Of a DNA stretch of 64,000 bases, positions 14,807 through 50,880 are shown piece after piece (the first letter of the stretch is position 1; each line of letters begins with the position of its first letter). The notes under the pieces were generated by a model. The model was not told the DNA's origin and did no database searches. It saw nothing but the letters and a program-made list of their open reading frames with translations. The DNA comes from an uncultured Gammaproteobacteria bacterium (GTDB lineage Bacteria; Pseudomonadota; Gammaproteobacteria; Steroidobacterales; Rariloculaceae). The position numbers and the translations under genes were made by a program. The stretch lies in assembly GCA_963786385.1 (NCBI GenBank), contig CAWAYS010000005.1, positions 467,331 to 531,330 of the forward strand, written 5' to 3'.

Positions 14807-14955
14807 GAAAATTCGTGCCTGCCGTGCAGGCAACGCCCCTTTCGGACCCCCGGCTGAATGCTGACTTTCGGTCAGCATTGTCGCCAATTCAACCCCCGGA
14901 GTGCTCGTTTCGTGCACCGAACCGGACGGTCTTGGCGCAGCGGGCCGGCGTCAAC

Positions 14956-16303: not shown

Positions 16304-16467
16304 TATTGAATCGTCGTCAGTCTATGGGTCGGCTGCTGCTGCGCCGCGACAGTGCGAACACTGGGCATGTCGTTGTTACGAACCATCACGGTAGGCATCG
16401 ATGTTGTCAAGAAACTATTCCCTGCGGGTTTGGAATGAGCGTGTCGCGTGCTGCGCGGCAGTCACGA

Positions 16468-31492: not shown

Positions 31493-32509
31493 TCAAAGCC
31501 GAATCCGCACGAAGTCGCTCAACACGCCGCCTGGCTCCCCCTGCACGGAGATATTGCCGACCTTGTCGGTTATCTTCTCCAACGCATCGAGCTCTCGGAG
31601 ACGCACCGCAATCGGGTTGTGCTCCAACGCGATGTGCCTCACGCCCACGTCTCGGATCTCGAGGCCGATCCCCGCGAGCTTCGCGCGAACGTACTCCAAG
31701 ACCGCAAGGTCGACGGCGCCCTGGTCGCCGTGCAGCGCGTCGAGCGTGCGGGTGCCCGCCGCGGCGCGCAGACCGAACTGAATCTCCTTGCGCAACAAAG
31801 CCAACGGATCCTCGACTGCCGTGACGGCCTTGCGCGCATCGACGAAGCGGTAGCTCGCGTTCAAGCTGACGCGCAGGGGGATCTTGTCCTTGGTCAAGAC
31901 CTCCTGCCCGACGATCTCGAGCGTTTTGACGCGCAGATCGACTACATCCACGGTCGGGCCGCGAGTGAACTTCCACAGCACGTGCAGCCCGGGCGCGAGC
32001 TCGTCCGCAATCTGACCGTCGACGTACAGTAAGCCGATGTGCCCCTCGGGCACTTCACGAACGAGCGCGGCATGCTCGAATGCCGAGTTGTGGCGTGTGC
32101 CGATCTCGCCCACGATGATCCTCGCCAAGCGCGGTGCGACGACCGGGTCGATCGTGATGTCGATCAATTCGGCCGTCACGCGCACGACGCCTTTCCAAAA
32201 GAGCGCGCGGCGACCGGGGCCGACGACCGTCGCCGGCCGGCCGTTCTCGCAGATCACGGCGAGCTGGCTCGGGCCCGTCTCGACCTTGACGAACATCGCG
32301 TCGATTTCCTCGGGATACCAGCGAATGAGGAAATCGAGCAGCCGGTGCTCGAATGCCGGTCGCGACAAGTCGTAGCGCTCTACCTCGACGCGCTTGCGCG
32401 GATCGAAGAAGCGATACGTGCTCGGCGCGAGAAAGCGCTCGAAGTCGCCGTTCTTGAACAGCAGTCCACGCTCGTGCTTACGCACCGTGAACTCACGCAG
32501 AAACAGCAT
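31493..32509 (-). CDS. Slipin-family SPFH/band-7 domain protein
   Basis: ATG at MLFLREFTVRKHERGLLFKNG. The C-terminal SPFH domain is GHIGLLYVDGQIADELAPGLHVLWKF…. The stop abuts the rtcB remnant start (TGAATG). Confidence 0.75.
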   Translation of the reverse strand: MLFLREFTVRKHERGLLFKNGDFERFLAPSTYRFFDPRKRVEVERYDLSRPAFEHRLLDFLIRWYPEEIDAMFVKVETGPSQLAVICENGRPATVVGPGRRALFWKGVVRVTAELIDITIDPVVAPRLARIIVGEIGTRHNSAFEHAALVREVPEGHIGLLYVDGQIADELAPGLHVLWKFTRGPTVDVVDLRVKTLEIVGQEVLTKDKIPLRVSLNASYRFVDARKAVTAVEDPLALLRKEIQFGLRAAAGTRTLDALHGDQGAVDLAVLEYVRAKLAGIGLEIRDVGVRHIALEHNPIAVRLRELDALEKITDKVGNISVQGEPGGVLSDFVRIRL

Positions 32510-32642
32510 CGTTCCTCTCCTTTGTCGGACCTCGACACGCCGGCGACCGAAGACGCCGGTATCCAAAGGCGCCGTGAAGCGCCCAAGCCCGCCGCCCTGG
32601 TGGGAGGGCGGCCGATGTTCACGCGGATCACTCGAAAAAACG

Positions 32643-32714
32643 TGCACCGGGAAGCGTTCGAAGCTTCGGCCTCCCAATTTCGATCGGGCGCTCTAACGAC
32701 TGAGCTACCGGTGC
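32643..32714 (-). tRNA. tRNA-like element, possibly a pseudo-tRNA, with a 6-nt anticodon loop
   Basis: The minus-strand fold has a GCACCGG/CCGGTGC acceptor stem, a TA-GCTC-AGTCGTTA-GAGC D-arm, a GAAGC-TTCGAAC-GCTTC T-arm and a 5-nt variable loop. The anticodon stem is CCCGA/TTGGG but the loop is only UCGAAA (6 nt), so the anticodon is ambiguous (GAA/Phe-like or CGA). No CCA is encoded. Confidence 0.55.
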
Positions 32715-32894: not shown

Positions 32895-33437
32895 CTTCTG
32901 TACCCTGGTCGGAAGGCTTCCTACACGTGCCCTCCGACCGAAAAATCAATCGAAAGGCTAGTCCTTCGCACCCCCGCCGTATCGCTGCACGAGCTTCCGG
33001 TCGAGCCATTCACGGCTGCTTCCGAAGGAGACGGCGCACGACGTTTTGCCACAAACGGCAGAGATGGCGCGTTCACGCGGCGAAAGGTCGACGGCAACGA
33101 TGTGTGTGTGCGAATTCATGTGCGCGCGAAATTTACGCCTGCGCGTTCCGCATGTCAAAGCACTTTTCGTGATATCGGCCGAGCGGCACTTTTCCAGAAG
33201 TGGAACGGCATCCGCGTCGGATCGAGCGATGCGTGGCGGACTTTCGGATCGCTGCCGAGCTCGGGCGCGTTACGGTCCGCTGACCGACCCCCGGTGCGTC
33301 ACTGCATTCGGCATCTCGACTCGGTACCATAGCCGGACGTTCATCTCCGTTCGTACGAGCGAGAACGATCATATGAAAGATGCGGATGTCAGGACGATTG
33401 GCCGGCTCGCCGAACGTGTCGGCGCAAACAAAGTCCC

Positions 33438-35789
33438 ATGACCGACGGCAACGAGACAGCGACCGATCCCGTCTGTGGCATGAGCGTGAATCCGGCCACG
33501 GCGCTCGGGTATGCGCACGCGGGCCGAAACTATCACTTCTGTTGCGCGGGCTGTCGCGACAAGTTCGCCGCCGATCCGGAAAAGTACCTCGCGAGCGATG
33601 TCGGCAGTCACGGTGCGCAACGCAAAGGCGAGATACGTGGCACGTCGTCGGCAACGGATGCTTCGGGCGCCACGGTATGGACGTGTCCCATGCACCCGGA
33701 CGTCCGCCGTCCGAAGCCAGGGCCATGTCCGCTTTGCGGAATGGCGCTCGAGCCCGAATCGCCGCTCGCCGAGGAAGGCGACAGCGAAGAGCTCGTCGAC
33801 ATGCGTCGTCGATTCTGGATCGCAGCCGTGCTCACCGTGCCGTTGCTGTGGGCAATGCTCGGCGGGTGGCTGCCGGCCGTCGATCCGATGCGACTCTTCG
33901 GCCACAGGGCCGTGGCCTGGGCACAGCTCGTGGTCGCGACACCCGTCGTGCTGTGGGCCGGCGCGCCGTTTTTCGTGCGTGGCTGGCAGTCGGTCGTCAA
34001 TCGCAGCCTGAACATGTTCTCGCTCATTGCTTTGGGGACCGGCGCAGCTTGGGGGTTCTCGGTGTTCTCTACGCTTCTTCCGCAAGCTTTGCCCGCGTCG
34101 TTTCTCGGCCCTACGGGCGAAGCGCCGGTGTACTTCGAGGCGGCGGCCGTCATCGTCACGCTCGTGCTGCTCGGCCAAGTGCTAGAGCTGCGTGCACGTG
34201 CACAGACGTCGGGTGCGATTCGTGCACTGCTGAAGCTCGCACCGAAAATTGCGCACCGCATCGACGAGAACGGCGAGGAGCACGATGTGCCGCTCGAAGA
34301 CGTGGAAATCGGCGATTACTTGCGCGTGCGTCCTGGCGAGAACATTCCCGTGGACGGCGTCGTCCTCGACGGCTCGAGCCACGTCGACGAGTCGATGCTC
34401 ACGGGCGAGCCCGATCCCGTGCGCAAGACGGAGGACGCGGCGCTGTCCGCCGGCACGACGAACGGCAGCGGCACGCTGCTCATGCAGGCCGAGCACGTGG
34501 GCGGCGAAACGTTGCTGTCGCAAATCGTGCAAATGGTCGCACAAGCGCAGCGGTCTCGAGCGCCCGTGCAGAGCCTTGCGGATCGCGTGTCCGCGTGGTT
34601 CGTGCCGACGGTCGTCGGCACTGCCGTGCTCGCGGCCGTGATCTGGGCTGCCCTGGGGCCGCCGCCGCAATTCGCCTATGCGCTGCTCGTCGGCGTGTCC
34701 GTGCTCATCGTCGCATGCCCATGCGCGCTGGGACTCGCGACGCCGATGTCGATCATGGTCGGTGTCGGCCGCGGCGCGACCGAGGGCGTGCTCATCAAGG
34801 ACGCGGCGGCGCTCGAGCGGCTGGAGAAGGTCACGACGCTCGTCGTCGACAAGACGGGGACGCTCACGGAAGGCAAGCCGAGCTTGCAGCGTGCCGTGGC
34901 GGCCGGCGAGTTCGAAGAGAGCGAGCTGCTCAAGCTCGCTGCGGCCGTCGAAGCGCCGAGCGAGCACCCGCTGGCGCGCGCGATCGTCGTCGGCGCCAAG
35001 GACCGCGGCATCGATTTGCCCGCGGGCACTGGCGCATTCGAATCGAATGCCGGCTTGGGCGTGTGGGGCGAGGTCGATGGCCGGCAAGTCGTCGTCGGCA
35101 ATGCCAAGCTCATGGACGAGCGAGGCGTCGACGTGACGGAGCTCGCCGAGACGGCAGCGCAAGAGAGCGGTCGCGGCGCGACGGCCGTCTACGTCGCAGT
35201 CGATGGCCGCGCCGCCGGTATTTTGATCGTTGCCGACGCGATCAAAAAGACCACGCCCGAGGCGATCGAAGCGCTCCGGCAAGCCGGTGTCAGGATCATC
35301 ATGCTTACAGGCGACGACGAGCGCACGGCACGGGCCGTCGGCAACGAGCTCGGCGTCGACGAAGTCGTCGCCGGCGTCTTGCCGAAGGACAAGGCGGGCG
35401 TCGTCGAGCGTCTGCAAAGGGAGGGTCACGTCGTCGCGATGGCCGGCGACGGTGTCAACGACGCGCCTGCGCTCGCTCGCGCCGACGTCGGCATCGCGAT
35501 GGGCACGGGCACCGACGTCGCGATGCAGTCCGCCGGCATCACGCTGGTCAAAGGCGATCTACGCGGCATCGTGCGCGCCTTGCGGCTGTCGCGGCGCACG
35601 ATGCGCAACATTCGCCAGAACCTGCTGTTCGCCTTCGGTTACAACTCGCTCGGTGTGCCGATCGCCGCCGGCGTGCTCTATCCCGTGTTCGGTTTGCTGC
35701 TGTCGCCGGCGATCGCGAGCTTCGCGATGAGTCTGTCGTCGGTGTCCGTCATCGCCAATGCGCTGAGGCTGCGGACCGTGAAGCTCTGA
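33438..35789 (+). CDS. Heavy-metal (Cu+/Ag+-type) translocating P1B-type ATPase with an N-terminal YHS/TRASH domain
   Basis: The N-terminus (DPVCGMSV…HFCCAGCRDKF), the CPC transmembrane metal site, DKTGTLT phosphorylation, and GDGVNDAPAL hinge are present. 783 aa and intact. Confidence 0.9.
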   Translation: MTDGNETATDPVCGMSVNPATALGYAHAGRNYHFCCAGCRDKFAADPEKYLASDVGSHGAQRKGEIRGTSSATDASGATVWTCPMHPDVRRPKPGPCPLCGMALEPESPLAEEGDSEELVDMRRRFWIAAVLTVPLLWAMLGGWLPAVDPMRLFGHRAVAWAQLVVATPVVLWAGAPFFVRGWQSVVNRSLNMFSLIALGTGAAWGFSVFSTLLPQALPASFLGPTGEAPVYFEAAAVIVTLVLLGQVLELRARAQTSGAIRALLKLAPKIAHRIDENGEEHDVPLEDVEIGDYLRVRPGENIPVDGVVLDGSSHVDESMLTGEPDPVRKTEDAALSAGTTNGSGTLLMQAEHVGGETLLSQIVQMVAQAQRSRAPVQSLADRVSAWFVPTVVGTAVLAAVIWAALGPPPQFAYALLVGVSVLIVACPCALGLATPMSIMVGVGRGATEGVLIKDAAALERLEKVTTLVVDKTGTLTEGKPSLQRAVAAGEFEESELLKLAAAVEAPSEHPLARAIVVGAKDRGIDLPAGTGAFESNAGLGVWGEVDGRQVVVGNAKLMDERGVDVTELAETAAQESGRGATAVYVAVDGRAAGILIVADAIKKTTPEAIEALRQAGVRIIMLTGDDERTARAVGNELGVDEVVAGVLPKDKAGVVERLQREGHVVAMAGDGVNDAPALARADVGIAMGTGTDVAMQSAGITLVKGDLRGIVRALRLSRRTMRNIRQNLLFAFGYNSLGVPIAAGVLYPVFGLLLSPAIASFAMSLSSVSVIANALRLRTVKL

Positions 35790-35863
35790 AGAAACGTGCG
35801 GACGTCATGCGATCCGCGGTCGTGCGGACGGGGCATCGCAACGTGCGAGCACGAGTCTCGCGA

Positions 35864-36517
35864 CTAGTGGACCGGCCTTCTGTGTCGGTCGGCCCAGGCG
35901 GCCCAGGCGATCAGCAGCCAGCCGACGAAAGAGAACCAGGCGAGCCCGCGCGCGCTCGGCGGCGGCGGTGACCAAGGGCCCGACGCCCAAATCACGGTCG
36001 GCACGAGCAGAAACGACCACAGGCCGATCGAGCCGATTTTGTTTTTCGCGCGAGTGCCGCTCACGTATACGGCAATGCCGACGATGTACAGCGCGCCTTC
36101 GACGAGCAGCGTCCCCGGCACCGAGTTCCACAGCCCGAGACCGATGCGCGGCGACGCGCCGGGCCACAGCGGCAGGTCCGGCACGTGCACGACGGTGTCC
36201 AAGAACCAGTGGCTTACGACGACGGCGCCGACGAGCACCACTGCGCCACGCGTGACCCCGCGTGAAGCCGCCAAACCCGCGGCGACGAGGCCCCATGCAC
36301 ATGCCATGACCAAGCTGTGCGACCAAGGGTACGAGTCGAACACGAGCGCGTTGAATGCCGTCGCGCCCGGCACGATGCTCACGTGCTCGACGCCGGCGAG
36401 CAGCAAGACGGGCCACACGAGGTCCAGGCCGAAAGCGGCCGCGACCAGCCAGCCCAGCGAAATCTTCGGCACGCGGCGCTTGGCCGCGAGCGCTACGGCC
36501 GTGTGTCCGACGAACAT
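35864..36517 (-). CDS. Membrane-bound metal-dependent hydrolase (YdjM/DUF457 family)
   Basis: MFVGHTAVALAAK… with multiple TM helices and conserved His residues. Confidence 0.55.
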   Translation of the reverse strand: MFVGHTAVALAAKRRVPKISLGWLVAAAFGLDLVWPVLLLAGVEHVSIVPGATAFNALVFDSYPWSHSLVMACAWGLVAAGLAASRGVTRGAVVLVGAVVVSHWFLDTVVHVPDLPLWPGASPRIGLGLWNSVPGTLLVEGALYIVGIAVYVSGTRAKNKIGSIGLWSFLLVPTVIWASGPWSPPPPSARGLAWFSFVGWLLIAWAAWADRHRRPVH

Positions 36518-36557
36518 CGCGTGCTACGGTGGCCGCGGCGTTGCATCACGTCGTCGG

Positions 36558-37589
36558 TCATTGCGGCTTCGGCGGCAGCGACGCGAGATAGGCCGAGAGG
36601 TTCAAGATGTCCTCGGCCGTGAGGTTCGCGACGACGGGGCCCATGAGCGGCGCCCAAACGCCGTGTCGCGTGCCCTGCTTGAAGTCGATGAGCTGGCGCG
36701 CGATATAGCTCGGCGAGCGGCCGCGCAGCGGTGGAACCAGCGCGAGGCCCGCGAGGTTCGAACCGTGGCAGACCGTGCAAGGCGTCGTCTTGCCTGCGCC
36801 CGTGTTGGCGAGCATCTCGCCGTTCGCGACGGCGCCTTTGGGCACATAGGCCGTGAACCCCGAGTGCGGATTGCGCAGTTTTTCGGTGTAGCCCGCATTA
36901 TTCGGAGTCTCGACGATGCGTTTGCCAAGCGGCTCCGTGCCGGCCTCGGCGCCTTCGAGCTTCAGATACATGCCGCCTTGGACGCGCGTTTTCGGCACGG
37001 TATCCGTCTCCACGACCTCGATCCACGGCGACCAGTCGAGCGCGCCGAAATACTCGGCGGCCTGTTGGATCTCCTCTTCGGTCATCGCGTGCGCGAACGC
37101 GGCCATCATCGGCGTGTTCGGCTTGAGCGGCTGGGCGCTCAGACGCAAGCCGTTCTTGAAGTCGTGCAGCTGCTGCACGAAGTAGCCGACTTGCAATCCC
37201 GCGACGCCGGCGTTTTCGGGACGACCTTTGCCGTTCGGGTAATGACAAAGCGAGCAGGCCATGACGCCGGCCGATTCGCGTCCGAAAGCCACGATCTTTG
37301 GCATCGCGGGATGCTCGGCCGGGAACCAGTCGGCCGGCCCTTGGCGGTTGCGAATCTGGTCGAGGGTGAACGAGCGGTCCGAGCCCGGCAGCGTGAACTT
37401 CGTGCCGTCGTCGGCCGTCGGTGCCGGCGCGGGCCCGGGCGGGCTGATCGCATACGCCCAGGCCAGCTCTTCGACGAGCTCGGCGGCCGCGACGTGGGTG
37501 GCGAGCGTCGAGGCTGCGGCGAGGCTCAACAGCACGGACGACGCACGCGCCATGCGGCCAGCGGCCGCCGAAATGCCGGCGAGATTCAT
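36558..37589 (-). CDS. Periplasmic diheme c-type cytochrome
   Basis: A signal peptide starts at MNLAGISAAAGRMA…. Two CxxCH motifs are present (CSLCH and CTVCH). Confidence 0.75.
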   Translation of the reverse strand: MNLAGISAAAGRMARASSVLLSLAAASTLATHVAAAELVEELAWAYAISPPGPAPAPTADDGTKFTLPGSDRSFTLDQIRNRQGPADWFPAEHPAMPKIVAFGRESAGVMACSLCHYPNGKGRPENAGVAGLQVGYFVQQLHDFKNGLRLSAQPLKPNTPMMAAFAHAMTEEEIQQAAEYFGALDWSPWIEVVETDTVPKTRVQGGMYLKLEGAEAGTEPLGKRIVETPNNAGYTEKLRNPHSGFTAYVPKGAVANGEMLANTGAGKTTPCTVCHGSNLAGLALVPPLRGRSPSYIARQLIDFKQGTRHGVWAPLMGPVVANLTAEDILNLSAYLASLPPKPQ

Positions 37590-37746
37590 CGAGCCCCCCC
37601 ATGATTCTTGTTGTTCGACGACGCCTGCCAATATACCCCGAAACGAGCGCGCGACGACGATTCTCCAAGCAGTCCGTAGGGGTTGAATCCGAAGGCGGCG
37701 ATTGGCGCACAATGGCGTATCGAAAACCACAACGAAGGAGACGCGG

Positions 37747-38325
37747 ATGGCACTGAAGCTTGAGCTCGAGCTCGGCGACGACGATCTCGCCTACTACCGA
37801 GGGGTCATGGACGCGACTTGGGAGCGCAATCAGGCGCGTAACGACCAGGATCTGCTGCGCAGCGCTCGTCGACTGCTGCAAGAGCAACAGAAGGGCAAGA
37901 TTCCGGGCTATGTCCGCAAGCGTCTCGACGATCTCGGTGCGTTGATTTCGATGCTCGAAGACCCCGAGTGGCCGCTCGAGGACAAGGACCGCCGCCGCAT
38001 CTTGGCGGCCACGAGCTACTTCGCCGACCCCGTCGACATGATCCCGGACAAGATCCCGGGGCTAGGCTTTCTCGACGACGCGATCATGGCCGAGCTCGTG
38101 ATCGGCGAGCTCCAGCACGACCTCGAGGGCTATCGGGAATTCTGCGAGTATCGGGAAAAAGAGCAGCAGCTGCACGGCGAGGAGGGCGAGCACGTGAGCC
38201 GCGAGGAATGGCTGGCTGCCAAGCGCCGGCAGATCTTTCTGCGCATTCAGCGCCGCCAGCAAGAACGCCGCCGCCACTGGTCGACCGAAGGTCCGACGGA
38301 TCCGATACTGCGCTACGAGTACTAG
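37747..38325 (+). CDS. DUF1232 (YkvA-like) domain protein
   Basis: The DUF1232 core is PVDMIPDKIPGLGFLDDAIMAELV. There is a GAAGGAG RBS. Confidence 0.65.
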   Translation: MALKLELELGDDDLAYYRGVMDATWERNQARNDQDLLRSARRLLQEQQKGKIPGYVRKRLDDLGALISMLEDPEWPLEDKDRRRILAATSYFADPVDMIPDKIPGLGFLDDAIMAELVIGELQHDLEGYREFCEYREKEQQLHGEEGEHVSREEWLAAKRRQIFLRIQRRQQERRRHWSTEGPTDPILRYEY

Positions 38326-38424
38326 GCAGGATCGCGCGGCAGTCACCGCACGATCATTCGCTCGGTGCTCTCAACGGCGAGCGAAGTCGACGCCCGTCAA
38401 CCTCTTCGCGCATTCCTACGCGGG

Positions 38425-38820
38425 CTAGAGCGGTCCTGCCTCGTCGGGTTGCGGGCATTTGTCGAGAAAGTCGTTGAGCTCGTCCCGGTTGTCCATCGAC
38501 ACGAACCGCGCGAGGTGCTTTGCGATGTACGCCTTGACGGCTTCCTCGGCGTGCAGTTGGCTCGCACCCGTGTCTTGCCGGTAACGACGGACGGCGGCGG
38601 CGCGATAGTCATCCGACTGTTGCCGTATCATGTCGCGCATCTCGGGCTTTCGGCTCGGATCGGTGAGGCGGTCTTGCCAGTTGGCACGATAGGCGGCGGC
38701 GCAGTCCGCGTAGTCGCTCCAAGCGTCTGCAGCCGCGACCGCGAAGGTCGATAGTGCGAGCGTCGTCGTGATGGCCGCGATCGAGACGAGCACTTTGATC
38801 ACGGGGATGTTTCCGGTGGC
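38425..38820 (-). CDS. Small secreted hypothetical protein
   Basis: A signal peptide (MATGNIPVIKVLVSIAAITTTLALSTFAVAAA) followed by a helical domain. Confidence 0.45.
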   Translation of the reverse strand, partial: ATGNIPVIKVLVSIAAITTTLALSTFAVAAADAWSDYADCAAAYRANWQDRLTDPSRKPEMRDMIRQQSDDYRAAAVRRYRQDTGASQLHAEEAVKAYIAKHLARFVSMDNRDELNDFLDKCPQPDEAGPL

Positions 38821-38859
38821 CATCAAACGGATGATTCGAGCCTGGCACAATATACCGCC

Positions 38860-38883
38860 GCAATCTGAAAGCCACCTGAAAGG
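38860..38883 (+). promoter_or_regulatory. Putative response-regulator operator: CTGAAA direct repeats 11 bp apart (GCAATCTGAAAGCCACCTGAAAGG)
   Basis: A near-identical copy lies upstream of the RND pump at 43563..43586. Both sit ~100–115 bp upstream of plus-strand starts. Confidence 0.55.
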
Positions 38884-38994
38884 ATGCCTGGCCAACAGTC
38901 ACGGGCCCGGAGTCATGCGCATCGTTCATGTTTGACCAACGGGTCGCGACGGTCGAAAGTATCCGGGTCGGATTGGGATGGAAGCTCGAAGGTA

Positions 38995-39675
38995 ATGCGC
39001 GTTCTGATCGTCGAGGACGAGCCGCAGATGGCTGAGCAACTTCGCCGAGGCCTTGAGCAGGAAGGCTATTCGTCTCTCGTCGCCCTCGATGGTCAGCAAG
39101 CGCTCGATCTGGCTCGAACCTTCGATCACGATCTCATGATTCTCGATCGAATGCTGCCGAAGGTGGACGGCCGTGACGTGGCGCGACGATTGCGGGCCGC
39201 AGGTGTCAGGACTCCGATACTGATGCTGACAGCGCGGGATTCGTCAACTGATGTCGTCGAAGGTCTCGATGGGGGTGCCGACGACTACCTGACTAAACCT
39301 TTTGCCTTCGAGGTGCTGCTGGCGCGTTTACGCGCGCTCGCGCGGCGAGTCCCTGTCACACAATCAATTGTCCTGCGCGTTGCCGATCTCGAGCTCGATC
39401 CTGCGCGGCACACGGTAACGCGTCTTGGTATCGAGATAGGACTCAGTGTGAGGGAGTTCCGGTTGCTTCATTTCTTGGTTCGTCGCGCCAACCAAATCGT
39501 CCCGAGAGAGACGTTGATGGAAGCCGTTTGGGGATACGAAAGCAGTGTCGAGAGCAATACACTGGATGCGTTCATTCACCTCCTTCGCACGAAGATCGAC
39601 GCTCCGCCGTACGACAAGCTCATCCACACAGTCCGCGGGATGGGGTACTGCGTCAGGGCGCCGGAGTTGAAATGA
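38995..39675 (+). CDS. OmpR-family response regulator (CusR/CopR-like)
   Basis: A receiver domain (MRVLIVEDE…D52 region) and a winged-helix output domain. Its stop overlaps the kinase start. Confidence 0.85.
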   Translation: MRVLIVEDEPQMAEQLRRGLEQEGYSSLVALDGQQALDLARTFDHDLMILDRMLPKVDGRDVARRLRAAGVRTPILMLTARDSSTDVVEGLDGGADDYLTKPFAFEVLLARLRALARRVPVTQSIVLRVADLELDPARHTVTRLGIEIGLSVREFRLLHFLVRRANQIVPRETLMEAVWGYESSVESNTLDAFIHLLRTKIDAPPYDKLIHTVRGMGYCVRAPELK

Positions 39676-41099
39676 ACCTGCATTCGATCGGCGTTCGTCT
39701 TACTGCGTGGTACGCGACGGTGCTTGCCGTGTCGATACTGTTCCTCGGCGGTGCGATGTGGCTCGCGGTTGAGCGAAGCCTCTACCACTCGGTCGATGAA
39801 TCGCTCCGCGACCGCGCCGAGGGGATAAGAATCTTCGTTGAAGATCATAAGAGCAGGCTTTCTTTGGACGAAGTCAAGGAGGAATTTCGCGCGCATGGGG
39901 ACCTGTTCCAAGTGATCGATGACCGTGGAAACGCAGTGCATCAGGCGGTGGCCCTGCGCGGCCAGGCTGCGCCGACTATCGACAAGCTCGGCGCAGAGCC
40001 ACGTTTCGAGAACGCGGTGATCAACGGAGTTCTGATGCGGTTCTTGTCGACGAGCATCGACGTTGACGGGCACCCTTACACGGTGCAAGTGGCTGCGCCG
40101 CTACGCGAGCTGCAGCGCGGCCTCCGCGATGCGCTTTGGCTGTTGTTGCCGCTTTTTCCCCTTGTGCTTCTGCTCGCCGCCGGAGGGGGCTACTGGCTGA
40201 GCCGCCGAGCTCTGGCGCCCGTTGACCAGATCACGGAGACGGCCCGGTCGATCACCGCCGACAACCTAGCCGACAGGCTCGCCGTGCCGGCGACCGGCGA
40301 CGAGCTCCAACGGTTGTCGGAAACGCTCAACGACATGATCGCGCGGCTCGAATCGGCGTTCCGAAGGATCTCGCGGTTCACGGCCGATGCCTCGCACGAG
40401 CTCCGCACGCCTTTGGCCGTGATGCGAACGACTGCAGAGGTCGCGCTCCGTTCGGACCGACCGAAAGACGTGCACCGCGAAGCGCTCGAGCACATCGTTG
40501 CGGAAACTCAGCGCACCTCGCAGCTCGTCGACAACATGTTGCTGATCGCGAATGCCGATTGCGGGCATGAACGGCTGAACATGGCACGCGTCGATCTGGT
40601 CGCGTCGGTTGGCGAGGCCTGCGCCGAGGCGGCCGTTCTGGCGCGGGAAAAAGGTGTGCGATTCGATGTGCGACTACCGGTCGGTCCCGTATGGGTCAAA
40701 GGCGACGCCAATGCCCTGCGGCGACTCTTCTTGATCTTGATCGACAATGCAGTCAAGTACACGCCACCGGGTGGGACGTGTGACGTGTATTTCGCGCAGC
40801 GTGAAGGCGCAGCCATCGGCGTCGTTAGGGACACGGGCATCGGTATCGCAAGTGACGATCTGCCGCATATCTTCGACCGTTTCTACAGAGTCGATCGAGC
40901 CCGTTCCCGTCGGCAAGGCGGCACTGGGCTCGGGCTCGCGATCGGCCGGTGGATTGTCACGTCGCACAACGGATCGATCGACGTCAAGAGCGCGGTCGAC
41001 CGCGGAACGGCGTTCGAGGTCCGATTGCCGCTCGTGGACGGCGCGACCCGGCGCGAGCGAGGTTACGGCGACGATCTCGCTACCGAAGCTGCGAGCTGA
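39672..41099 (+). CDS. Sensor histidine kinase (CusS/CopS-like)
   Basis: Two TM helices around a periplasmic domain, a HAMP domain, an H-box (ASHELRTPL), and N/G1/G2 boxes (DNAVKYTPPGG, GTGLGLAI). Confidence 0.85.
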   Translation: MNLHSIGVRLTAWYATVLAVSILFLGGAMWLAVERSLYHSVDESLRDRAEGIRIFVEDHKSRLSLDEVKEEFRAHGDLFQVIDDRGNAVHQAVALRGQAAPTIDKLGAEPRFENAVINGVLMRFLSTSIDVDGHPYTVQVAAPLRELQRGLRDALWLLLPLFPLVLLLAAGGGYWLSRRALAPVDQITETARSITADNLADRLAVPATGDELQRLSETLNDMIARLESAFRRISRFTADASHELRTPLAVMRTTAEVALRSDRPKDVHREALEHIVAETQRTSQLVDNMLLIANADCGHERLNMARVDLVASVGEACAEAAVLAREKGVRFDVRLPVGPVWVKGDANALRRLFLILIDNAVKYTPPGGTCDVYFAQREGAAIGVVRDTGIGIASDDLPHIFDRFYRVDRARSRRQGGTGLGLAIGRWIVTSHNGSIDVKSAVDRGTAFEVRLPLVDGATRRERGYGDDLATEAAS

Positions 41100-42441
41100 G
41101 AGAGTTGCCGATTGCTGTGTGCAGGCGAATCTGCGCCAGGGAGTAGTTCACGCGCGCCTCGAGGCGTGCCACCTCCGCGGCCGCGAGCATTTGCATCGCT
41201 TGTAGCACTTCGAGCGGCAGTCCTTGGTGATCATAGATGCGCGCGCGGTTCAGCGTGTAGGCCTTCTGCGCGCGTTCGACCGTGACGTCCGTGAGCGTGA
41301 GCTGTTGCTTGAAGCTTCGGACGCGGGCGTAGTCCTCTCGCACTTCGGCAGCGATGCTGTCGCGGAGCTTGTCGCGCTCGAGCCCGATCCTTTGCAGCTG
41401 CGCGCGTTTCTCGTTGGCGCGAGCTCGATGGCCGAGCCCGAAGCTGTCGAACTGCCAGTAGAGCGTCAGCGCCAAGTCCGAGCGATCGTCCGTGTTGTCG
41501 ATCGCCGATCCCGGGCCGCCGCCGAACCGTTGCTTGCCGTAGTCGAGTGCCACGTCCGGGACGAAGAGTTTGTAGTGCTCGGCGCTCAAGTCGGCTTGCG
41601 CGGCCGCGACGAGCGCGTTGTACTGCTCGGCCTCGGGTCGAGAAGTGACGGCGCGCGAGATGAGCTGGCCGACGTCCTCGTTGTCCGAGAAGATCTCGAG
41701 CGGCGGAATCTCGCTCTCCATGGGCTCGAGCACGACGCTCGGATCCAAGTGCAAGAGCCGACTGAGCTCTGCGGCAGCCGTCTCGTTTCGTTCTTGCGTT
41801 GCGACGCGGCGCTGCTGCCAGAGCAGTGGCTGCACGGCGGCCATTTGCGCGTCGGACTCGAGGCCTTCACCGGCCTCGGCGTAGTTGGCCGTCAGAGTCG
41901 CAAGGTCCGTCGCACGCTCGAGCGCGCGTTGCACGATGGCGCTTTCGGCGCGCGACTCCAGTAGCCGCAGGTAGGCGGTGGCGACGTCAACGAAGACTCG
42001 ATGACGGTTGGCATTCGATGCAGCCGCGGCCGCAGCGCGGTTCTGCTTGGCTACCAGCGGCGCGAAAACGGCGTCGGTGATGTCGACCTTGAGCTCCGTG
42101 CTCACACCGCTCCCGCGTGCGGCGCGGTCTGCGTCGAGGACTTGGCCGCTGGTCTCCTGAATGTTGCCGGTGTGACGGGCATAGTCGGCGCCGACTCGGA
42201 TTGCGGGGACGGCCAGCGTTTGCGCCTCGGCAACCTTGGCGGACGCTTCGGCGATGCGTGCGACGTAGATCGCGACGTCGAGGTTACGTTCGTCGGCGAG
42301 CCGCAACGCGGTCGGCAGATCGATCGGCAAGACATTGTTGTCGGCGGCTTGAGCACGAATCTGGCCCGCGAGGGCGACCGTTAGCAGCGGCACGAGCGCC
42401 GTGCAGCGGACATTGGCTCGGCGGGGAGGGGCTTGACTCAT
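41080..42441 (-). CDS. TolC-family outer-membrane efflux protein
   Basis: A 453-aa ORF with a signal peptide and two-repeat OEP architecture. Confidence 0.8.
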   Translation of the reverse strand: MSQAPPRRANVRCTALVPLLTVALAGQIRAQAADNNVLPIDLPTALRLADERNLDVAIYVARIAEASAKVAEAQTLAVPAIRVGADYARHTGNIQETSGQVLDADRAARGSGVSTELKVDITDAVFAPLVAKQNRAAAAAASNANRHRVFVDVATAYLRLLESRAESAIVQRALERATDLATLTANYAEAGEGLESDAQMAAVQPLLWQQRRVATQERNETAAAELSRLLHLDPSVVLEPMESEIPPLEIFSDNEDVGQLISRAVTSRPEAEQYNALVAAAQADLSAEHYKLFVPDVALDYGKQRFGGGPGSAIDNTDDRSDLALTLYWQFDSFGLGHRARANEKRAQLQRIGLERDKLRDSIAAEVREDYARVRSFKQQLTLTDVTVERAQKAYTLNRARIYDHQGLPLEVLQAMQMLAAAEVARLEARVNYSLAQIRLHTAIGNSLSSQLR

Positions 42442-43514
42442 TGCGGCGGCTGGCGTGTGAGCACGCGAACCGAAGAGCCGTCCGCGAGCGCCTCGACGCT
42501 GCCGCTGACGACACGCTCGCTACCACTGAGACCGCCGACGACCTCGGTCCAGCCCGCGTCGTTGAGGCCGATCTGCACGGGGCTGCGTTGCACAGTGTCG
42601 CTCGTGCCGACGATGTAGACGAACGAGCCGCCGTCGTCGAATCGAATTGCCGAGGACGGCAGCGCGAGCGTCTTCTGGCGCTTCTCTAGCACGATACGCG
42701 TTTGGCCGTAATAACCGGGGCGGATTCGCCCGTCGGCATTCGGCAGATCGATCTCGACGAGCATCGTCCGCGTGCTCGGGTCGAGTGCTTCCGCGGCTCT
42801 CGCGACTTGACCGACGGAGATCCGGCCCGGGAGCGCATCGAACGCCACTGTCGCTGGATCGCCGACATCGACCCAGGCCGATTCGCGCTCCGGCACGTAC
42901 GTCTTCACGCGAATGACGTTGACCGCTGCGACGCGCATTAGCGGCTCGTTGCCACCTTTCGGCGAGCTTGCCTCGTATACCATGTCGCCAGGATCGATAG
43001 CACGCGATGTGACGATTCCGTCGAATGGCGCCTCGATCGTGGCGTAAGCCATCTGCGCTTCGATCTCGGCTTGCTTCGCGCGCGCCGCGTCGACTCGGCC
43101 CTTGGCTTCCGTGAGCGTCTTCTGCGTGACCGAGTTGCGTTCGGCGAGCATTGCGATGCGGTGGTATTCAGAGTCGAGCGAGGTCACTTCGGCCGCGGCC
43201 CCGTTGCGCGCTTGAATGAGCTCCGGAACCGTGATTCGCGCCAGCACCTGGCCTTTCTTCACGCGCGCGCCGATGTCGACGTCGAGCTCGCTCACGTATC
43301 CGGACACCTTGGCGCCTAGGTCTGCTTCGTAGAATGCCTCGGCCGTGCCGGGCTGGGTCGAGACGAGGTCGAAGTCGCGACGCTCGGGCTCTACGACATT
43401 CACCGAAGCTTGCTGTCCGATCCCCTGCGCGCTCCAAAGCACGGCGACAAGCGAAACGCCGCAAGCCGCAAGCGATCGGAAAGGGAGGTCCGAGATTCGA
43501 GTGTCTTTCGGCAT
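42438..43514 (-). CDS. RND efflux periplasmic adaptor (membrane fusion protein)
   Basis: HlyD/biotin-lipoyl-like and beta-barrel regions are present. The stop overlaps the TolC-like start by 4 nt. Confidence 0.8.
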
Positions 43515-43562
43515 GAGTGCTCGCTCGAAGTTCTTGGCGGTGCGGCGAGGAAGTTTACCTGC

Positions 43563-43626
43563 GCAATCTGAAAACCATCTGAAATCTTGGGTGTCGGCAG
43601 GCGAATGCCTTTCAGATAGTTTTCAG
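43563..43626 (+). promoter_or_regulatory. Divergent regulatory region: a second CTGAAA-N5-CTGAAA operator copy plus inverted TTTCAG half-sites
   Basis: GCAATCTGAAAACCATCTGAAATC lies at 43563..43586, and TTTCAGatagtTTTCAG at 43610..43626. The region sits between the adaptor start (43514, minus) and the RND start (43687, plus). Confidence 0.5.
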
Positions 43627-43686
43627 TTCCATTTGCTAGGCTCGCAGCGGATCGAATCTGTTAGAAAAACACCGGCGGGCCGCACG

Positions 43687-46600
43687 ATGAACCTCGTTCA
43701 ATCTGCCTTGCGTCGTCCTTTTAGCTTGATCGTGTTGGTCGCTGCCGTTGTGCTCGGCGCCATGCTCGCTTTGAGCCGTATGCCGCGCGACATTTTCCCG
43801 ACGCTCGGAATTCCGACCATCTATGTGGCGCAGCCTTACGGCGGTATGGATCCCGCACAGATGGAAGGCTTTCTCACGTACTACTACGAATATCACTTTC
43901 TCTATATCACGGGGATCGAGCACGTCGAATCGAAGTCCATCCAGGGCGCTTCGATCATGAAGCTTCAGTTCTATCCGAACACCGACATGAGCCAGGCGAT
44001 GGCGGAGACTGTTCAGTACGTGAACCGGGCACGGGCTTTTATGCCGCCCGGCACGGTGCCGCCGTTTGTCATGCGCTTTGACGCAGGCAGCGTGCCCGTC
44101 GGCACGCTCGTCTTCTCAAGCGAGACGCGGTCCGTCGCCGAGATGCAGGACGCTGCGCTCAACCTCGTACGGCCATTGTTCGCGACGTTGCCGGGCGTTT
44201 CCGCACCGCCGCCCTTCGGTGGTGCAGCGCGCAGCATCGTCGTGAATCTGAATCCCGAACGGCTGCGCGCATACAACATGGCCCCAGACGAGGTCGTCGC
44301 GGCGATCAGTCGCGCCAATTTGATTAGTCCATCAGGGAACATGGCCGTTGCCGGGAAGTATCCGATGGTGCCACTGAATTCGGTGGTCAAGAACATCAAG
44401 GATCTCGAAACAGTCCCGATCAGGGCAGGCACTTACCCGACCGTGTTTCTGCGTGACGTCGGCACTGTCGTCGACGGCTCCGACATCGTGACGAGCTCTG
44501 CCCTCGTGAATGGCCGGCGGACCGTCTACATTCCGGTGACGAAGCGCTCCGACGCCTCGACGCTCGACGTCGTCCAGGCCGTCAAGGAGAATCTACCCCG
44601 CTTTCAGAGTGTCTTGCCTGAGGACGTCAAGGTCAGTTATGAGTTCGATCAGTCGCCGTATGTCACCCGGGCGATTTCGGGGTTGACGCTCGAGGGGGCG
44701 CTCGGTGCCGTGCTCACGGGCATCATGGTGTTGCTGTTTCTCGCGGATTGGCGCAGCGCAGTGATCGTCGTCGTCAGCATTCCGCTTGCGCTCACGGGCG
44801 CCGTGCTCGCGCTTTGGGTCACGGGTCAGACAGTGAACATCATGACTCTTGGCGGACTCGCGCTCGCGATCGGCATTCTGGTCGACATGTCGACGGTCGT
44901 CATCGAGAACATCCATGTGCATTTGGCGCGGGGTCGGCGTGTGGCACGGGCCGTCGTCGATTCGGGGAGCGAGGTCGCCATGCCGCTCTTGATCGCAATG
45001 CTGTGTGTGCTCGCGGTGTTCGTCCCATCGTTCTTCATGGTCGGTGCCGCGCGGGCGATGTTCTTGCCGCTCTCGCTCGCGGTCGGTTTCGCAATGGTGG
45101 GCTCCTATTTGCTTTCGAGCACGCTGGTTCCGATTCTCTCGGTTTGGTTCCTGCGTGGTCACGAGACGGCGGCCGTGAACCAGCGTGGTGCCGAGACGAG
45201 GTTTGCGAGTCTTCAGCGCGCGTATGCGGGGCTCGCGGCGCGCATCGTGAGTGTGCGCTGGCTCGTCGTGGGCGTTTACGTCGCAGCTGCGGCGGCCGTG
45301 ATCGTGCTGATCGGCGGTCGGCTCGGCACCGAGATCTATCCGAACGTCGAAGCCGGGCAGCTACAGGTCAGGCTCCGCGCACCCACGGGCACACGCGTCG
45401 ACGGGACCGAGGCCGTCGCGCTCAAGGCGCTCGACATCATTCGCAATGAAGCAGGGCCCGACAACGTCGCGATTACGATGGGGTTCCTTGGGGTGCACGG
45501 CTCAAGTTACCCGATTAATTTCATCTACATGTGGAACGGCGGCTCGGAGGAGGGGGTGCTTCAGGTCCAACTCAAGCACGGGTCGGGCGTCGATACGGGC
45601 GCGCTCAAGGAACGGCTGCGCGCCCGCTTCGCGCAAGAGTTGCCGGACGTGAGCTTTTCGTTCGAGCCGAGCGACATTGTGAGTCAGGTCATGAGCCTCG
45701 GCTCTGCGACGCCGATCGAGGTGGCGGTGAGCGGCCCGGACTTGAGCGCCAGCCGCGAATTCGCAGCGAAGATCCGAGACCGCCTCCGAGGCATTTCTGC
45801 GTTGCGCGATGTTCAATTCGGCCAAGCGCTCGACTACCCGACGCTCGACGTGCACGTCGACCGCGAGCGCGCAGGGCTCATGGGCATCGGAATGGCCGAG
45901 ATTTCCCGGTCGCTCGTGTCCGCGACCTCTTCGAGTCGTTTCGTGGTGCCGAACTACTGGGCGGATCCGAGGACCGGCGTTGCATACCAAATCCAAGTCG
46001 AGATCCCGCACGAAGACATGCACTCGCCGGAGGACCTCGAGAACGTGCCGGTGGCTTACCGCGGTGACCGACCGATCCTGCTGCGCAACGTTGCGAAAGT
46101 CACGGCGGGTACGACGCCCGGTCAATACGCGCGCTATAACATGCAGCGGCTCGTCACGATCACGGCCAACCTCGCAGGCGAGGACTTGGGTAGCGTCGCA
46201 GACCAGGTGCGCGCCGCGATCGCGGCAGCCGGCGCGCCGCCTCCACGCTCGAGCGTCGCGCTGCGCGGTCAGGTCGTGCCGATGCAGCAGCTCCTCGACG
46301 GCCTCCAGACGGGGCTGCTCTTGGCCGTTGCCATAGTGTTTCTGCTCCTTATCGCGAACTTTCAATCCATCAAGCTCGCGGTCATCGTTGCCTCGACCAC
46401 GCCTGCGGCAGTCGCCGGCGTCGTAGCGGCGCTTTGGATTACCGGCACGACACTGAACATTCAGTCCTACATGGGCGCGATCATGGCGGTCGGCGTGGCC
46501 GTCGCCAATGCTATTCTGCTCGTGACTTTCGCCGAACGCGCGCGCATGAACGGGGCCGAGGCGCGAGTCGCCGCCGTGGACGGTGCGGTAAGTCGCCTGC

Positions 46601-46860
46601 GACCCATCCTCATGACGAGCCTCGCAATGATCGCAGGCATGCTGCCCATCGCGATCGGCTTCGGCGAGGGCAGCGAGCAGACGGCGCCGCTGGGCCGGGC
46701 GGTGGTCGGCGGGCTCGCGGCAGCCACGTTCGCTACGCTGCTGGTACTCCCGGCCGTGTTCGCGATCGTTCAGGCTCGCGCGAACCGGCGATCCGTCTCG
46801 CTTGATCCCGACGACGTCGCGGGATCTCACTTCACCGCCGTGTCGCGCGAAGCCACGTGA
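43687..46860 (+). CDS. RND heavy-metal efflux pump (CusA/CzcA-like, HME family)
   Basis: 1057 aa from [29 protein letters not shown]; 12 TM helices with two large periplasmic loops. Confidence 0.85.
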
Positions 46861-47309
46861 TCGCGCGTCGCGGCCTTATGGCCGTTTTTGCTCTAGCGCC
46901 CCTCGTGTCGTATGGCCAACAGCCTGCCAGCGTCGAGCTTTATGTCGAGTCGGACGGCGACTTTTTGGCTTTCAAGCCGACAGAGCTGACGTGTCCCGCA
47001 GGGGCGCACGTCGAGCTCACCTTTCATCACGCGGGCAGTCGAGTACAGCAGATGCACGACTGGGTGCTGTTGGAGCCGGGTACGGCCGACGACTTCATGA
47101 AGGCCGTGCTTCGTGCCGGTGAGGCGAACCACTGGCTGCCGCGCAACGACACACGCGTGGTGGTCGCTACGCCCCAGATCGCGCCAGGCGAATCCGTGAC
47201 CGTCGAGTTCAGAGCGCCACGAGTCGGCGACTATCCCTTCGTTTGCACCTTTGCCGGTCATGGCGACGTGATGCGCGGCGTGTTGCATGTGATCCGGTCG
47301 GATCGTTGA
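46857..47309 (+). CDS. Periplasmic cupredoxin (type-1 copper) protein, translationally coupled to the RND gene
   Basis: A GTG start sits inside the RND stop (GTGA). A signal peptide is followed by H…C-x4-H-x3-M ligands ([14 protein letters not shown]). Confidence 0.6.
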
Positions 47310-47341
47310 TTCGTTTGCAGTAACCAGAATGAGGTGATCCC

Positions 47342-47779
47342 ATGGGTTCGTTGCGTAAGCTCGCTTCTTCGGTCGGTGCATTCGTGCTCGTCGTCGCGTT
47401 CGCGCTGCCCATCTTTGGTCAGGGGCAACCCACATCGCCCGACGACGTCAAGACTGGGCTGCGGATTCTGAACCAGGTCGTGGGCCACACGGGCCGACTC
47501 ATCGCTTCGAAGAACTACGACACGGTCCCGCGCGAGCATCACGAGATCGTCGAGGGAGCGCAGATCCTTAGGGACGCGCTGGCGAAGGAGCCTGAAGAAA
47601 TGCAGACAAAGGTCGACGCATTGCTCGACAAAGTCGTGGCCGCGTCGAGCGCCCTTGCCGAGCCGAGCAAGATGCACGACGACGCAAAGCTCGTGGCCAT
47701 GCACGCTGCGCTTGCCGACGCGGTCCACGACGTGCTCGATCTATTTCCCCGGAGCCTACAGCCGACACCGCGGAATTGA
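47342..47779 (+). CDS. His-rich periplasmic helical protein; possible metal chaperone
   Basis: A GAGGTGA RBS and a signal peptide. His clusters (PREHHEIVE, MHDDAKLVAMHAALADAVHDV). Confidence 0.5.
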   Translation: MGSLRKLASSVGAFVLVVAFALPIFGQGQPTSPDDVKTGLRILNQVVGHTGRLIASKNYDTVPREHHEIVEGAQILRDALAKEPEEMQTKVDALLDKVVAASSALAEPSKMHDDAKLVAMHAALADAVHDVLDLFPRSLQPTPRN

Positions 47780-47782
47780 GCG

Positions 47783-50008: not shown

Positions 50009-50009
50009 G

Positions 50010-50714: not shown

Positions 50715-50725
50715 CCGTGGGTGAA

Positions 50726-50770
50726 GGCTAGCAGCTTGGTCCGTCGATGCATGTAAATCCTTTGTAAATC
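50726..50770 (+). promoter_or_regulatory. Conserved promoter/operator block: GGCTAGCAGCTT-N15-GTAAATCCTTTGTAAATC
   Basis: Direct GTAAATC repeats are 11 bp apart, 111 bp upstream of the FMN-reductase start. The block is duplicated at 53200..53242. Confidence 0.55.
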
Positions 50771-50880
50771 GAGCACTGACGCACACCGGGTCTCGGTCTC
50801 GCGTTAGACTGCGCCCCGACAGCGACCCCGGCGCGGCCGGGAATGTGGTACGCGGCCGAAAAAGACAAGGGGACGGTCCG

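Follow-up and report, generated by a model that had tools for sequence, protein, structure and literature searches.

Does an efflux pump that stands near a copper ATPase and a two-component system, with a cupredoxin gene coupled to it, represent a rearranged cus operon, or does it belong to a regulon of another kind? The question is raised by a stretch of 64,000 nucleotides (the window) from an uncultured gammaproteobacterium of the Rariloculaceae (contig CAWAYS010000005.1), in which a preliminary description had recognized a copper/silver-type resistance island at 33438-47779. Pfam and NCBIfam scans bore out most of the genes listed there. The module that we delimited, 38425-47779, comprises a response regulator, a sensor kinase, an outer-membrane channel and a periplasmic adaptor facing a resistance-nodulation-division (RND) pump, a cupredoxin, a secreted 145-residue helical protein (Hel145) and a secreted 132-residue protein (smallP). 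We consider it fairly probable that this module is a self-contained two-component regulon with three promoters sharing one operator (the box), serving most likely against periplasmic copper or copper-linked envelope stress. There is good support for a regulon of three promoters whose operator has a defined geometry, for coordinated control of the split pump, and for smallP and the cupredoxin-Hel145 cassette as co-regulated periplasmic outputs; the copper role is plausible from context. The module looks like an uncharacterized variant of bacterial copper or envelope defence rather than a cus operon that has been rearranged.

A direct-repeat operator in three promoters

The sequence CTGAAA-N5-CTGAAA occurs exactly three times in the 64 kb (38865, plus strand; 43568, plus strand; 43610, minus strand), compared with 0.05 occurrences expected, and none of 100 shuffled sequences reached three sites. 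The copies are GCAATCTGAAAGCCACCTGAAA at 38860-38881, GCAATCTGAAAACCATCTGAAA at 43563-43584 and an inverted copy at 43610-43626. In transcribed orientation, the box is followed at a fixed distance by a -10-like hexamer, giving TTTCAG-N5-TTTCAG-N10-TAnnnT. The promoter of smallP (38849..38881, minus strand) consists of the box TTTCAGgtggcTTTCAG running from 38881 down to 38865, a 10-bp spacer, and TATATT from 38854 down to 38849. That of the adaptor-channel operon (43552..43584, minus strand) has TTTCAGatggtTTTCAG from 43584 down to 43568 and, after a 10-bp spacer, TAAACT from 43557 down to 43552. The promoter of the pump-cupredoxin-Hel145 operon (43610..43642, plus strand) has TTTCAGatagtTTTCAG at 43610-43626, again a 10-bp spacer, and TAGGCT at 43637-43642. 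The first two promoters have 29 nucleotides in common at 86% identity. With a position weight matrix built from 13 sites, no further site above 12 bits was found in the window and none near copA.

To place the box in a wider context, 80 loci around homologues of the RND pump were fetched, and further loci were reached via the cupredoxin. The exact box was present in three of the 80 (L001, L007 and L033) and absent from the other 77. These three loci showed the same divergent layout as the window, an orthologous two-component system (regulators 73-77% and kinases 60-72% identical), and boxes arranged as an inverted pair in the intergenic region between adaptor and pump, one copy in L001 carrying one mismatch. 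Among the loci found via the cupredoxin, L081/L082 contained three boxes as in the window, L083 one and L095 two. The full arrangement TTTCAG-N5-TTTCAG-N10-TAnnnT was seen at 15 of 15 sites (window, L001, L007, L033, L081, L083 and L095). The last hexamer was mostly TAGACT or TAGGCT, and the hexamers, their spacing and the -10 position were conserved while the spacer sequences diverged. The motif reported in the preliminary description is therefore real, being far in excess of expectation in the window and conserved in seven loci.

Which genes do the boxes serve? In L083, the sole box lies in the 78-bp gap between kinase and adaptor, ahead of a colinear operon in which the adaptor gene is followed by those of the pump, the channel, a phosphatase, the cupredoxin and, in this order, proteins of 153 and 141 aa. 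The two boxes of L095 face smallP and the cupredoxin, respectively. These two layouts make the orientation of the box unambiguous. The adaptor-channel and pump promoters were both kept in L001, L007, L033 and L081, and the smallP promoter arrangement recurred in L081 (1941-) and L095 (8447-). Because the 10-bp spacing to TAnnnT exists on the TTTCAG strand, the boxes are assigned to the proximal genes: the three in the window most likely drive smallP, adaptor-channel and pump-cupredoxin-Hel145. They appear not to drive the regulator operon; a box upstream of the regulator gene was absent in 4 of 6 related loci (L001, L007, L033 and L083). The preliminary description had placed the box upstream of the regulator operon and the pump, an assignment at odds with both the -10 spacing and these four loci. 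It had also stated that the motif differs from the CusR box of E. coli, and indeed no CusR-type palindrome was found in the window. A literature search for a regulator box made of TTTCAG direct repeats returned nothing relevant.

The two-component system that accompanies the box

The regulator gene (38995..39675, plus strand) encodes an OmpR/PhoB-family protein with Response_reg and Trans_reg_C domains. The kinase gene (39672..41099, plus strand) encodes HAMP, HisKA, HATPase_c and 2CSK_N domains and a periplasmic domain of about 120 residues; its ATGA start overlaps the stop codon of the regulator gene, an overlap seen also in the adaptor/channel gene pair. The two-component system of the preliminary description thus proved to be present. 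The best NCBIfam model for the regulator was TIGR01387 (heavy-metal response regulator) at 218.8 bits, below the cut-off of 279.2, and the top model for the kinase was TIGR01386 (heavy-metal two-component kinase), a near miss at 282.9 relative to 292.55. Identity to CusR was 44% for the regulator, which shared 71-80% of its residues with its counterparts in the box-bearing loci; the kinase was 30% identical to CusS.

The box was found in 7 of 7 loci with an adjacent orthologous regulator. In L085 and L090 the box was absent and an unrelated two-component system was present instead (regulators 44-47% and kinases 22-23% identical). Loci without any adjacent system likewise lacked the exact box. 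Across loci, then, the box co-varies with the regulator. The protein has the receiver and winged-helix domains of an OmpR/PhoB-type activator, and the hexamers show 11-bp periodicity and occupy the -35 position. The adjacent regulator is presumed, from these sequence features, to be the activator that binds the box.

An orphan RND pump split from its adaptor and channel

The layout noted in the preliminary description, with channel and adaptor on the minus strand facing the pump on the plus strand, was confirmed. The adaptor gene (42438..43514; TIGR01730, 212 bits relative to a cut-off of 94.9; HlyD_D23) overlaps by 4 bp the gene of the TolC-family channel (41080..42441; OEP, 72.6 bits), the second gene of the operon. 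The pump gene (43687..46860; ACR_tran, 638 bits) lies on the other side of the intergenic region.

The pump had been called CusA-like, and the comparison with CusA did not sustain this name. It reached 405.3 bits with TIGR00914 (CusA/CzcA), for which the cut-off is 701.45; its best model was that of multidrug RND proteins, NF033617, at 521.5 bits, also below cut-off (1250). Matches to solved structures were about equal for ZneA (275 bits), MdtB (262) and CusA (258), and identity to CusA, AcrB, MdtB and MdtC was 22-25%. When the pump was aligned by MAFFT with CusA of E. coli, R and E occupied the positions of M573 and M623; the residue at M672 depended on the alignment, being V in one and M in another. 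Met was found at 2 of the 8 positions of the CusA Met pairs. Among the relay residues of CusA, D405 was kept, E939 was replaced by Ala and K984 by Ile. Transmembrane segment 4 (TM4) reads VDMS, with a single Asp as in CusA and not the Asp-Asp of multidrug pumps. The multidrug relay was not found either: the positions of AcrB D407, D408 and K940 hold D, M and A, with R971 and T978 conserved. As a positive control, the RND protein of L093, which is 64% identical to CusA, retained all three Met and the relay residues. The mature N-terminus of the adaptor contains no Met, unlike that of CusB, and among the open reading frames (ORFs) scanned in the segment none matched CusF_Ec. The wider claim of a Cus-type system fails on these two points. 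On sequence comparison, the pump belongs to an orphan clade, neither Cus/Czc-type nor typical multidrug type, and the proposal that it is a Cus-type methionine-relay Cu(I) pump is not supported.

This clade is widespread, with members in Verrucomicrobiota, Planctomycetota, Binatia, Acidobacteriota, Bradyrhizobium and others, where the pump gene is usually followed by those of the adaptor and then the channel. A small group of Gammaproteobacteria shows the divergent layout as a derived feature, each half there having its own box. Aligned members of the clade also showed the single TM4 Asp together with Ala in place of the TM10 Lys, a proton relay unlike those of AcrB and CusA.

A cupredoxin with a probable twin-arginine signal

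The cupredoxin gene (46857..47309, plus strand; Cupredoxin_1, Copper-bind) overlaps the stop codon of the pump gene by GTGA at 46857-46860, and the Hel145 gene follows after 32 bp, with the ribosome-binding site AGGTGA in the gap; a cupredoxin and a secreted protein are coupled to the pump, as had been proposed. The best match in the PDB was auracyanin A (3.6e-19), azurins also matching, and the copper ligands aligned with both. H60, C123, H128 and M132 were invariant in 10 sequences, with azurin spacing, and PF00127 scored 28.6 relative to 21.2, which together identify a type-1 copper site. The azurin equivalog TIGR02695 was not reached (63.3 relative to 105.1 bits). The His/Cys/His/Met site, buried as in azurin, is of the kind found in redox centres and not in sites of copper transfer. 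Between H60 and C123 there are one Met and one non-conserved His, and the N-terminus is not His-rich; judged from the description of CopI, the protein lacks the features of the CopI type.

Homologues carry the signal motif SRRxF, which aligns with ARRGL in the form initiated at GTG 46857. This GTG is probably the start codon, giving a twin-arginine (Tat) signal, and the public gene call P0001 (143 aa, from ATG 46878) probably truncates that signal. Azurins are normally Sec substrates, and a Tat-exported azurin-like protein is unusual. A word-indexed search recovered 49 clusters of the family. When plasmids were searched with the cupredoxin by tblastn, only ordinary azurins at about 30% identity were found.

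Hel145 and a portable cassette

Hel145 (47342..47779, plus strand), a protein with a Sec signal, was modelled with AlphaFold2 (AF2) as a bundle of four helices (predicted local distance difference test, pLDDT, 85). It had no match in Pfam, and the PDB gave weak fold matches only, to PsbQ/CyanoQ and cytochrome c'. A relationship to cytochrome b562/c' or PsbQ was considered and rejected: no Foldseek match reached E <= 1e-3, and the CxxCH motif is absent from the protein. The word-indexed search yielded 44 clusters, and a full profile search of 1.84 billion representatives yielded 86 relatives. The preliminary description had called this protein His-rich, a term that hardly applies to 7 His in 145 residues. 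In distant and fused members, Asp-Met takes the place of the sole His that is invariant among the close relatives, and no ligand model for Hel145 is justified. The GHTGR motif of the close family becomes A-D-M-Q-R or D-D-M-A-R in the fusions and distant members.

The genes of the cupredoxin and Hel145 were adjacent in 9 of 9 contexts examined. In two natural fusions, P0129 (286 aa) and P0146 (275 aa), the cupredoxin is N-terminal and the Hel145-like domain C-terminal. The surroundings of the pair varied widely. In the window and L081/L082 it follows a pump of the type described above, and in L083 it is found at the end of the colinear efflux operon, whose pump is 34% identical. In L085-L087 and L090 it is convergent with an unrelated two-component system and RND operon (pump 27% identical). 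The pair in L093 stands beside a true CusC-CusB(CusF-fused)-CusA system and an HMBD ATPase. In L094 it comes directly after merR and a YHS/HMBD ATPase gene, ahead of another RND operon (pump 22% identical), and the merR promoter of the merR-ATPase operon there contains a CueR-type dyad, CTTGACCTTACCACTATGGCAAGGTTCAAGAT, at 5170-5210. Two contexts have no pump: L095, where the pair stands beside the orthologous two-component system with its own box, and L089, with cytochrome b5 and ferric-reductase genes nearby. The cassette was absent from L001, L007 and L033, the three closest pump loci in the genome collection (pumps 77-89% identical).

The linkage of the cupredoxin and Hel145 to copper export is real, but it is that of a portable cassette and not of a pump-specific chaperone. 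The chaperone role once suggested for the cupredoxin does not agree with a cassette that accompanies pumps 22-34% identical to that of the window, a genuine CusA or no pump at all, and that is missing beside the closest pumps. The opposite concern, that the cupredoxin might be a stray electron carrier conserved outside efflux contexts, found no confirmation either: the protein is recurrently tied to efflux and copper loci.

Two of these loci deserve a further remark. Between pump and kinase in L033 (13199-14207), at the place of the cupredoxin and Hel145 in the window, there are genes for a DoxX-like membrane protein and a 191-aa secreted protein with a C-terminal CIACH haem motif, similar to class II cytochrome c. 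Downstream of the regulator-kinase operon in L095 (11581-14391, minus strand) lie genes for a DUF4405 membrane protein, ApbE, an FMN_bind protein and DUF6662, which may form a periplasmic flavin/redox module within the same regulon there.

smallP as a further output

The gene of smallP (38425..38823, minus strand; identified by translation) abuts the first box and had been overlooked. The 132-aa product has a Sec signal and an all-helical AF2 model of three helices (pLDDT 81). Its family comprised 16 clusters, all annotated as "hypothetical", with C41, C123, M62, M65 and W49 invariant, that is, two invariant Cys and an invariant M-x-x-M. No match was found in Pfam, nor any structural match in the PDB (best E = 3). 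A box of its own precedes smallP in the window, L081 and L095, and in L001 the protein is encoded in the pump operon, directly downstream of the pump; these positions make it a core output of the regulon. A feedback modulator of the CpxP/Spy/ZraP kind was considered for smallP because the gene is divergent, box-driven and beside two-component genes. Neither Pfam nor structural matches bore this candidate out, and an analogy of layout is what remains of it.

Boundaries of the module and its neighbours

Upstream of the module lies the gene of a CopA-type Cu(I) P1B ATPase (33438..35789, plus strand; TIGR01511, 600.3 bits relative to a cut-off of 397). With CPC at 427 and DKTGT at 471, the protein has the features of a P1B-1 ATPase, and its N-terminus carries YHS (residues 9-51) and HMBD (80-107) but no HMA domain, in agreement with the preliminary description. 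No CueR-type operator beyond chance expectation was found upstream of the window copA. Between copA and smallP there are genes for a YdjM-like membrane protein (35864-36517, minus strand), a diheme cytochrome c (36558-37730, minus strand) and a DUF1232 protein (37702-38325, plus strand). The last two had been correctly named, as shown by the two CxxCH motifs and the domain scan; the YdjM-like assignment is weak (20.7 bits relative to a cut-off of 29). Long shadow ORFs, such as one of 863 aa over copA (33380-35971, plus strand), are artefacts of a GC content of 64% and not genes.

Downstream, a second two-component system (47783-50918, minus strand) is convergent with Hel145. It consists of an OmpR-type regulator (RR2) and a kinase (HK2) of 741 aa whose large N-terminal region matches nothing in Pfam. 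Past it lies a gene for an MmyB-like helix-turn-helix regulator (52263-53138, minus strand).

A syntenic metagenome contig, L097 (1-10709), lacks the block from the regulator to Hel145 and also the DUF1232 gene, which is outside that block. Its contiguous order is MmyB-like regulator (82% identical), 229-aa protein (68%), RR2 (88%), HK2 (68%), smallP (57%), cytochrome c (78%), YdjM-like protein (76%) and the C-terminus of CopA (92%); smallP directly follows the HK2/RR2-type system and has no box. The contiguity of L097 delimits 38824-47782, that is, the regulator through Hel145 plus the smallP promoter, as an insertion/deletion unit relative to this contig. Judged by this gene order, CopA, the YdjM-like protein and the cytochrome c are backbone genes and not part of the predicted box-controlled unit; the smallP gene, too, stands in the backbone of L097.

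The term island, which the preliminary description had applied to 33438-47779, is unproven for this region. No terminal repeats or target duplication flank 38.8-47.8 kb, where the top repeat is the operator itself; around the block no mobility genes or GC shift were seen, the GC content being flat; and three of the genes included belong to the backbone in L097, so that 33438-47779 takes in two separate entities. When the whole segment was searched against plasmid DNA, only the ATPase gene matched (about 72% identity), with no mobile-element context. Around the module there is also an SPFH/Band 7 gene (31493-32677, minus strand), and L081 contains NfeD, BON-domain, MscS-type channel, DUF1232 and diheme cytochrome c genes at 11558-17797. 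All these neighbours probably reflect synteny of the lineage rather than a functional link.

A model of the regulon and the alternatives to it

In our model, the kinase, which has a periplasmic domain of about 120 residues, would phosphorylate the OmpR/PhoB-type regulator, and this, as a tandem dimer, would occupy two TTTCAG hexamers 11 bp apart. Standing 10 bp upstream of TAnnnT, the hexamers would replace the -35 element, as in class II, pho-box-like activation. The outputs would be smallP, the adaptor and channel, and the pump with the translationally coupled, probably Tat-exported cupredoxin and Hel145; a box for each of the two divergent halves, both in the intergenic region, would hold the split pump together. 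The signal and purpose would most likely be periplasmic copper or copper-linked envelope stress, and the cupredoxin and Hel145 would be an independent periplasmic copper-handling or redox cassette recruited by different copper-export loci. That the regulator binds the box and activates from it, that copper is the signal, and what the cassette does biochemically are inferred from sequence; the copper reading rests on the family affinity of the two-component proteins, on the copper genes beside which the cassette recurs and on precedents for cupredoxin-like proteins in copper regulons, among them PA2807 and CopI.

Several observations weigh against this model. Both two-component proteins fell under the cut-offs of the heavy-metal families, though those models were their top hits. 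The sensor domain has no His/Met ligands of the CusS/CopS type, the region of the Met/His cluster of CusS is missing, and the one His that aligns with CusS H42 is not conserved, being Arg in the L083 orthologue. The metal-relay residues E939 and K984 of CusA are missing from the pump. Most relatives of the pump (in Verrucomicrobiota, Planctomycetota and others) have no CopA, cupredoxin or Hel145 within the fetched flanks, so the substrate of the pump may not be copper. The -10 hexamers TAGGCT and TAAACT are weak and were not called by a generic sigma-70 scan; a generic scan of the window for sigma-70 promoters and terminators gave counts no higher than in shuffled sequences. In the window and L081, the smallP box is also 114-119 bp upstream of the divergent regulator gene, and some autoregulation through it may occur.

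The main rival is a regulon against non-metal envelope or redox stress, in which the pump would export an organic or amphiphilic toxicant, the two cassette proteins would form a couple for electron transfer, for instance to supply a detoxifying reaction in the periplasm, and the copper neighbours would be coincidental. Auracyanin and azurin, the closest relatives of the cupredoxin among solved structures, are electron carriers; the best model for the pump is that of multidrug RND proteins, and the pump is as close to MdtB as to CusA or ZneA; the sensor domain shows no recognizable metal site; and redox genes occur beside the regulon in L095 (ApbE, FMN_bind) and beside the cassette in L089 (cytochrome b5, ferric reductase). 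However, coincidence would have to account for the repeated presence of the cassette beside genuine CusCBA genes, copper ATPases of the HMBD/YHS kind and an operator of the CueR type; both two-component proteins match the heavy-metal models best; and the single Asp in TM4 is that of CusA and not the Asp-Asp of multidrug pumps. We regard this rival as doubtful. A rearranged cus-type Cu(I)/Ag(I) efflux system, with the cupredoxin in the place of CusF as the chaperone that feeds the pump and with activation of the regulator operon and the pump from CTGAAA repeats some 100 bp upstream, would fit the CopA-type ATPase next door, the heavy-metal affinity of the two-component system and the translational coupling of the cupredoxin to the pump. 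A cupredoxin-fold Cu(I) chaperone also exists, CupA of S. pneumoniae (PMC9470648). This explanation meets difficulties at each component, however: E939, K984, most Met pairs and M573/M623 are missing from a pump that does not reach TIGR00914, the adaptor lacks the N-terminal Met of CusB, the copper site of the cupredoxin is a closed azurin-type His/Cys/His/Met centre, the cassette is absent from L001, L007 and L033 and present with non-orthologous pumps or with none, and the -10 spacing assigns the boxes to the proximal genes, four of six loci having no regulator box. From the sequence comparisons, the cus-type explanation is less supported than the non-metal one, and we consider it improbable.

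A different objection concerns the box, which could be the site of another factor, such as HK2/RR2, or a shared promoter remnant copied with the genes. In L097, smallP directly follows an HK2/RR2-type system and has no box, and the similarity of the smallP and adaptor promoters could reflect a duplication. But the box was found only beside the orthologous regulator and was gone where a different system stands in; no HK2/RR2-type system was detected near L001, L007 and L033; and hexamers, spacing and -10 position are conserved between diverging spacers. Such an origin of the box is very improbable. Activation of the three promoters by the adjacent regulator, under a copper-linked signal, is the reading that we retain.

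A bolder proposal concerns the cassette. The cupredoxin and Hel145 might constitute an undescribed two-part periplasmic copper device, recruited independently by CusCBA, CueR-CopA and TTTCAG-box regulons, with smallP as a third component. As a "split CopI", Hel145 would capture Cu(I) and the type-1 centre would oxidize or buffer it. This proposal in its full form is tentative, and we hold it to be possible rather than probable. Drawn by analogy, the more general hypothesis, which we favour, is that the cassette has a role in copper redox or buffering and that Hel145 supplies in trans what CopI has in cis.

Comparison with known systems

The module is built of known kinds of parts: an OmpR-family regulon, a tripartite RND pump and a type-1 cupredoxin. 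What appears new is the operator sequence, the orphan pump clade with its atypical relay, the Tat-exported cupredoxin plus four-helix cassette with its fusions, and smallP; the operator, pump clade, cassette and smallP correspond to no named Pfam or NCBIfam family and were not encountered in the literature searched. A regulon of an uncultured lineage is thereby defined with its operator, promoters and outputs, precisely enough to be tested. The case also calls for caution in annotation: a pump near CopA and a heavy-metal-like sensor could pass for CusA in surveys of metal resistance in metagenomes although the CusA metal site is not conserved in it. The cassette is rare and unannotated, with about 50 cupredoxin and 86 Hel145 clusters among billions of proteins, and its fusions and repeated neighbourhood point to a role in periplasmic copper homeostasis, a field in which it is still being established what cupredoxin-like proteins such as PA2807 and CopI do.

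With CusRS-CusCFBA of E. coli, the module shares a two-component system encoded next to a tripartite RND pump and a small periplasmic protein encoded alongside. It differs in that the pump is divergent from the adaptor and channel, does not keep the Met triad of CusA, lacks the E939/K984 relay and is accompanied by an adaptor without the CusB Met and by no CusF; the operator is a TTTCAG direct repeat and not the CusR palindrome. Pho boxes and CiaR boxes are direct repeats with 11-bp periodicity that lie 10 bp upstream of the -10 element and replace the -35 element. The 15 sites fit this direct-repeat geometry of PhoB and CiaR class II promoters; the hexamer in the window is TTTCAG, and binding here is predicted from the sequence.

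The cupredoxin can be compared with azurin and auracyanin, with PA2807 and with CopI. Azurin and auracyanin are its best matches of solved structure, and all four type-1 ligands are kept, but the protein is below the azurin cut-off, carries a twin-arginine signal and is encoded in efflux or copper loci and not in respiratory ones. The CopRS regulon of P. aeruginosa (pcoAB, ptrA, PA2807, queF) includes cupredoxin/azurin-like and other small periplasmic proteins (PMC7763554, PMC9470648), PA2807 being the cupredoxin-like one (PMC7763554). There too, a copper-sensing two-component system controls a cupredoxin-like protein (PA2807 was compared by its description); however, the CopRS regulon has no RND pump and no four-helix partner, and its operator differs. 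CopI of Rubrivivax gelatinosus is a periplasmic single-domain cupredoxin with a His/Cys/His/Met centre that has been implicated in copper tolerance; it depends on an internal segment, conserved and rich in His and Met, and carries a further His-rich site at the N-terminus (PMC13308877). The cupredoxin of the window resembles CopI as a single-domain periplasmic protein with the same four-ligand centre, but it lacks both His-rich segments and comes instead, in all contexts examined, with a separate helical protein, to which it is sometimes fused.

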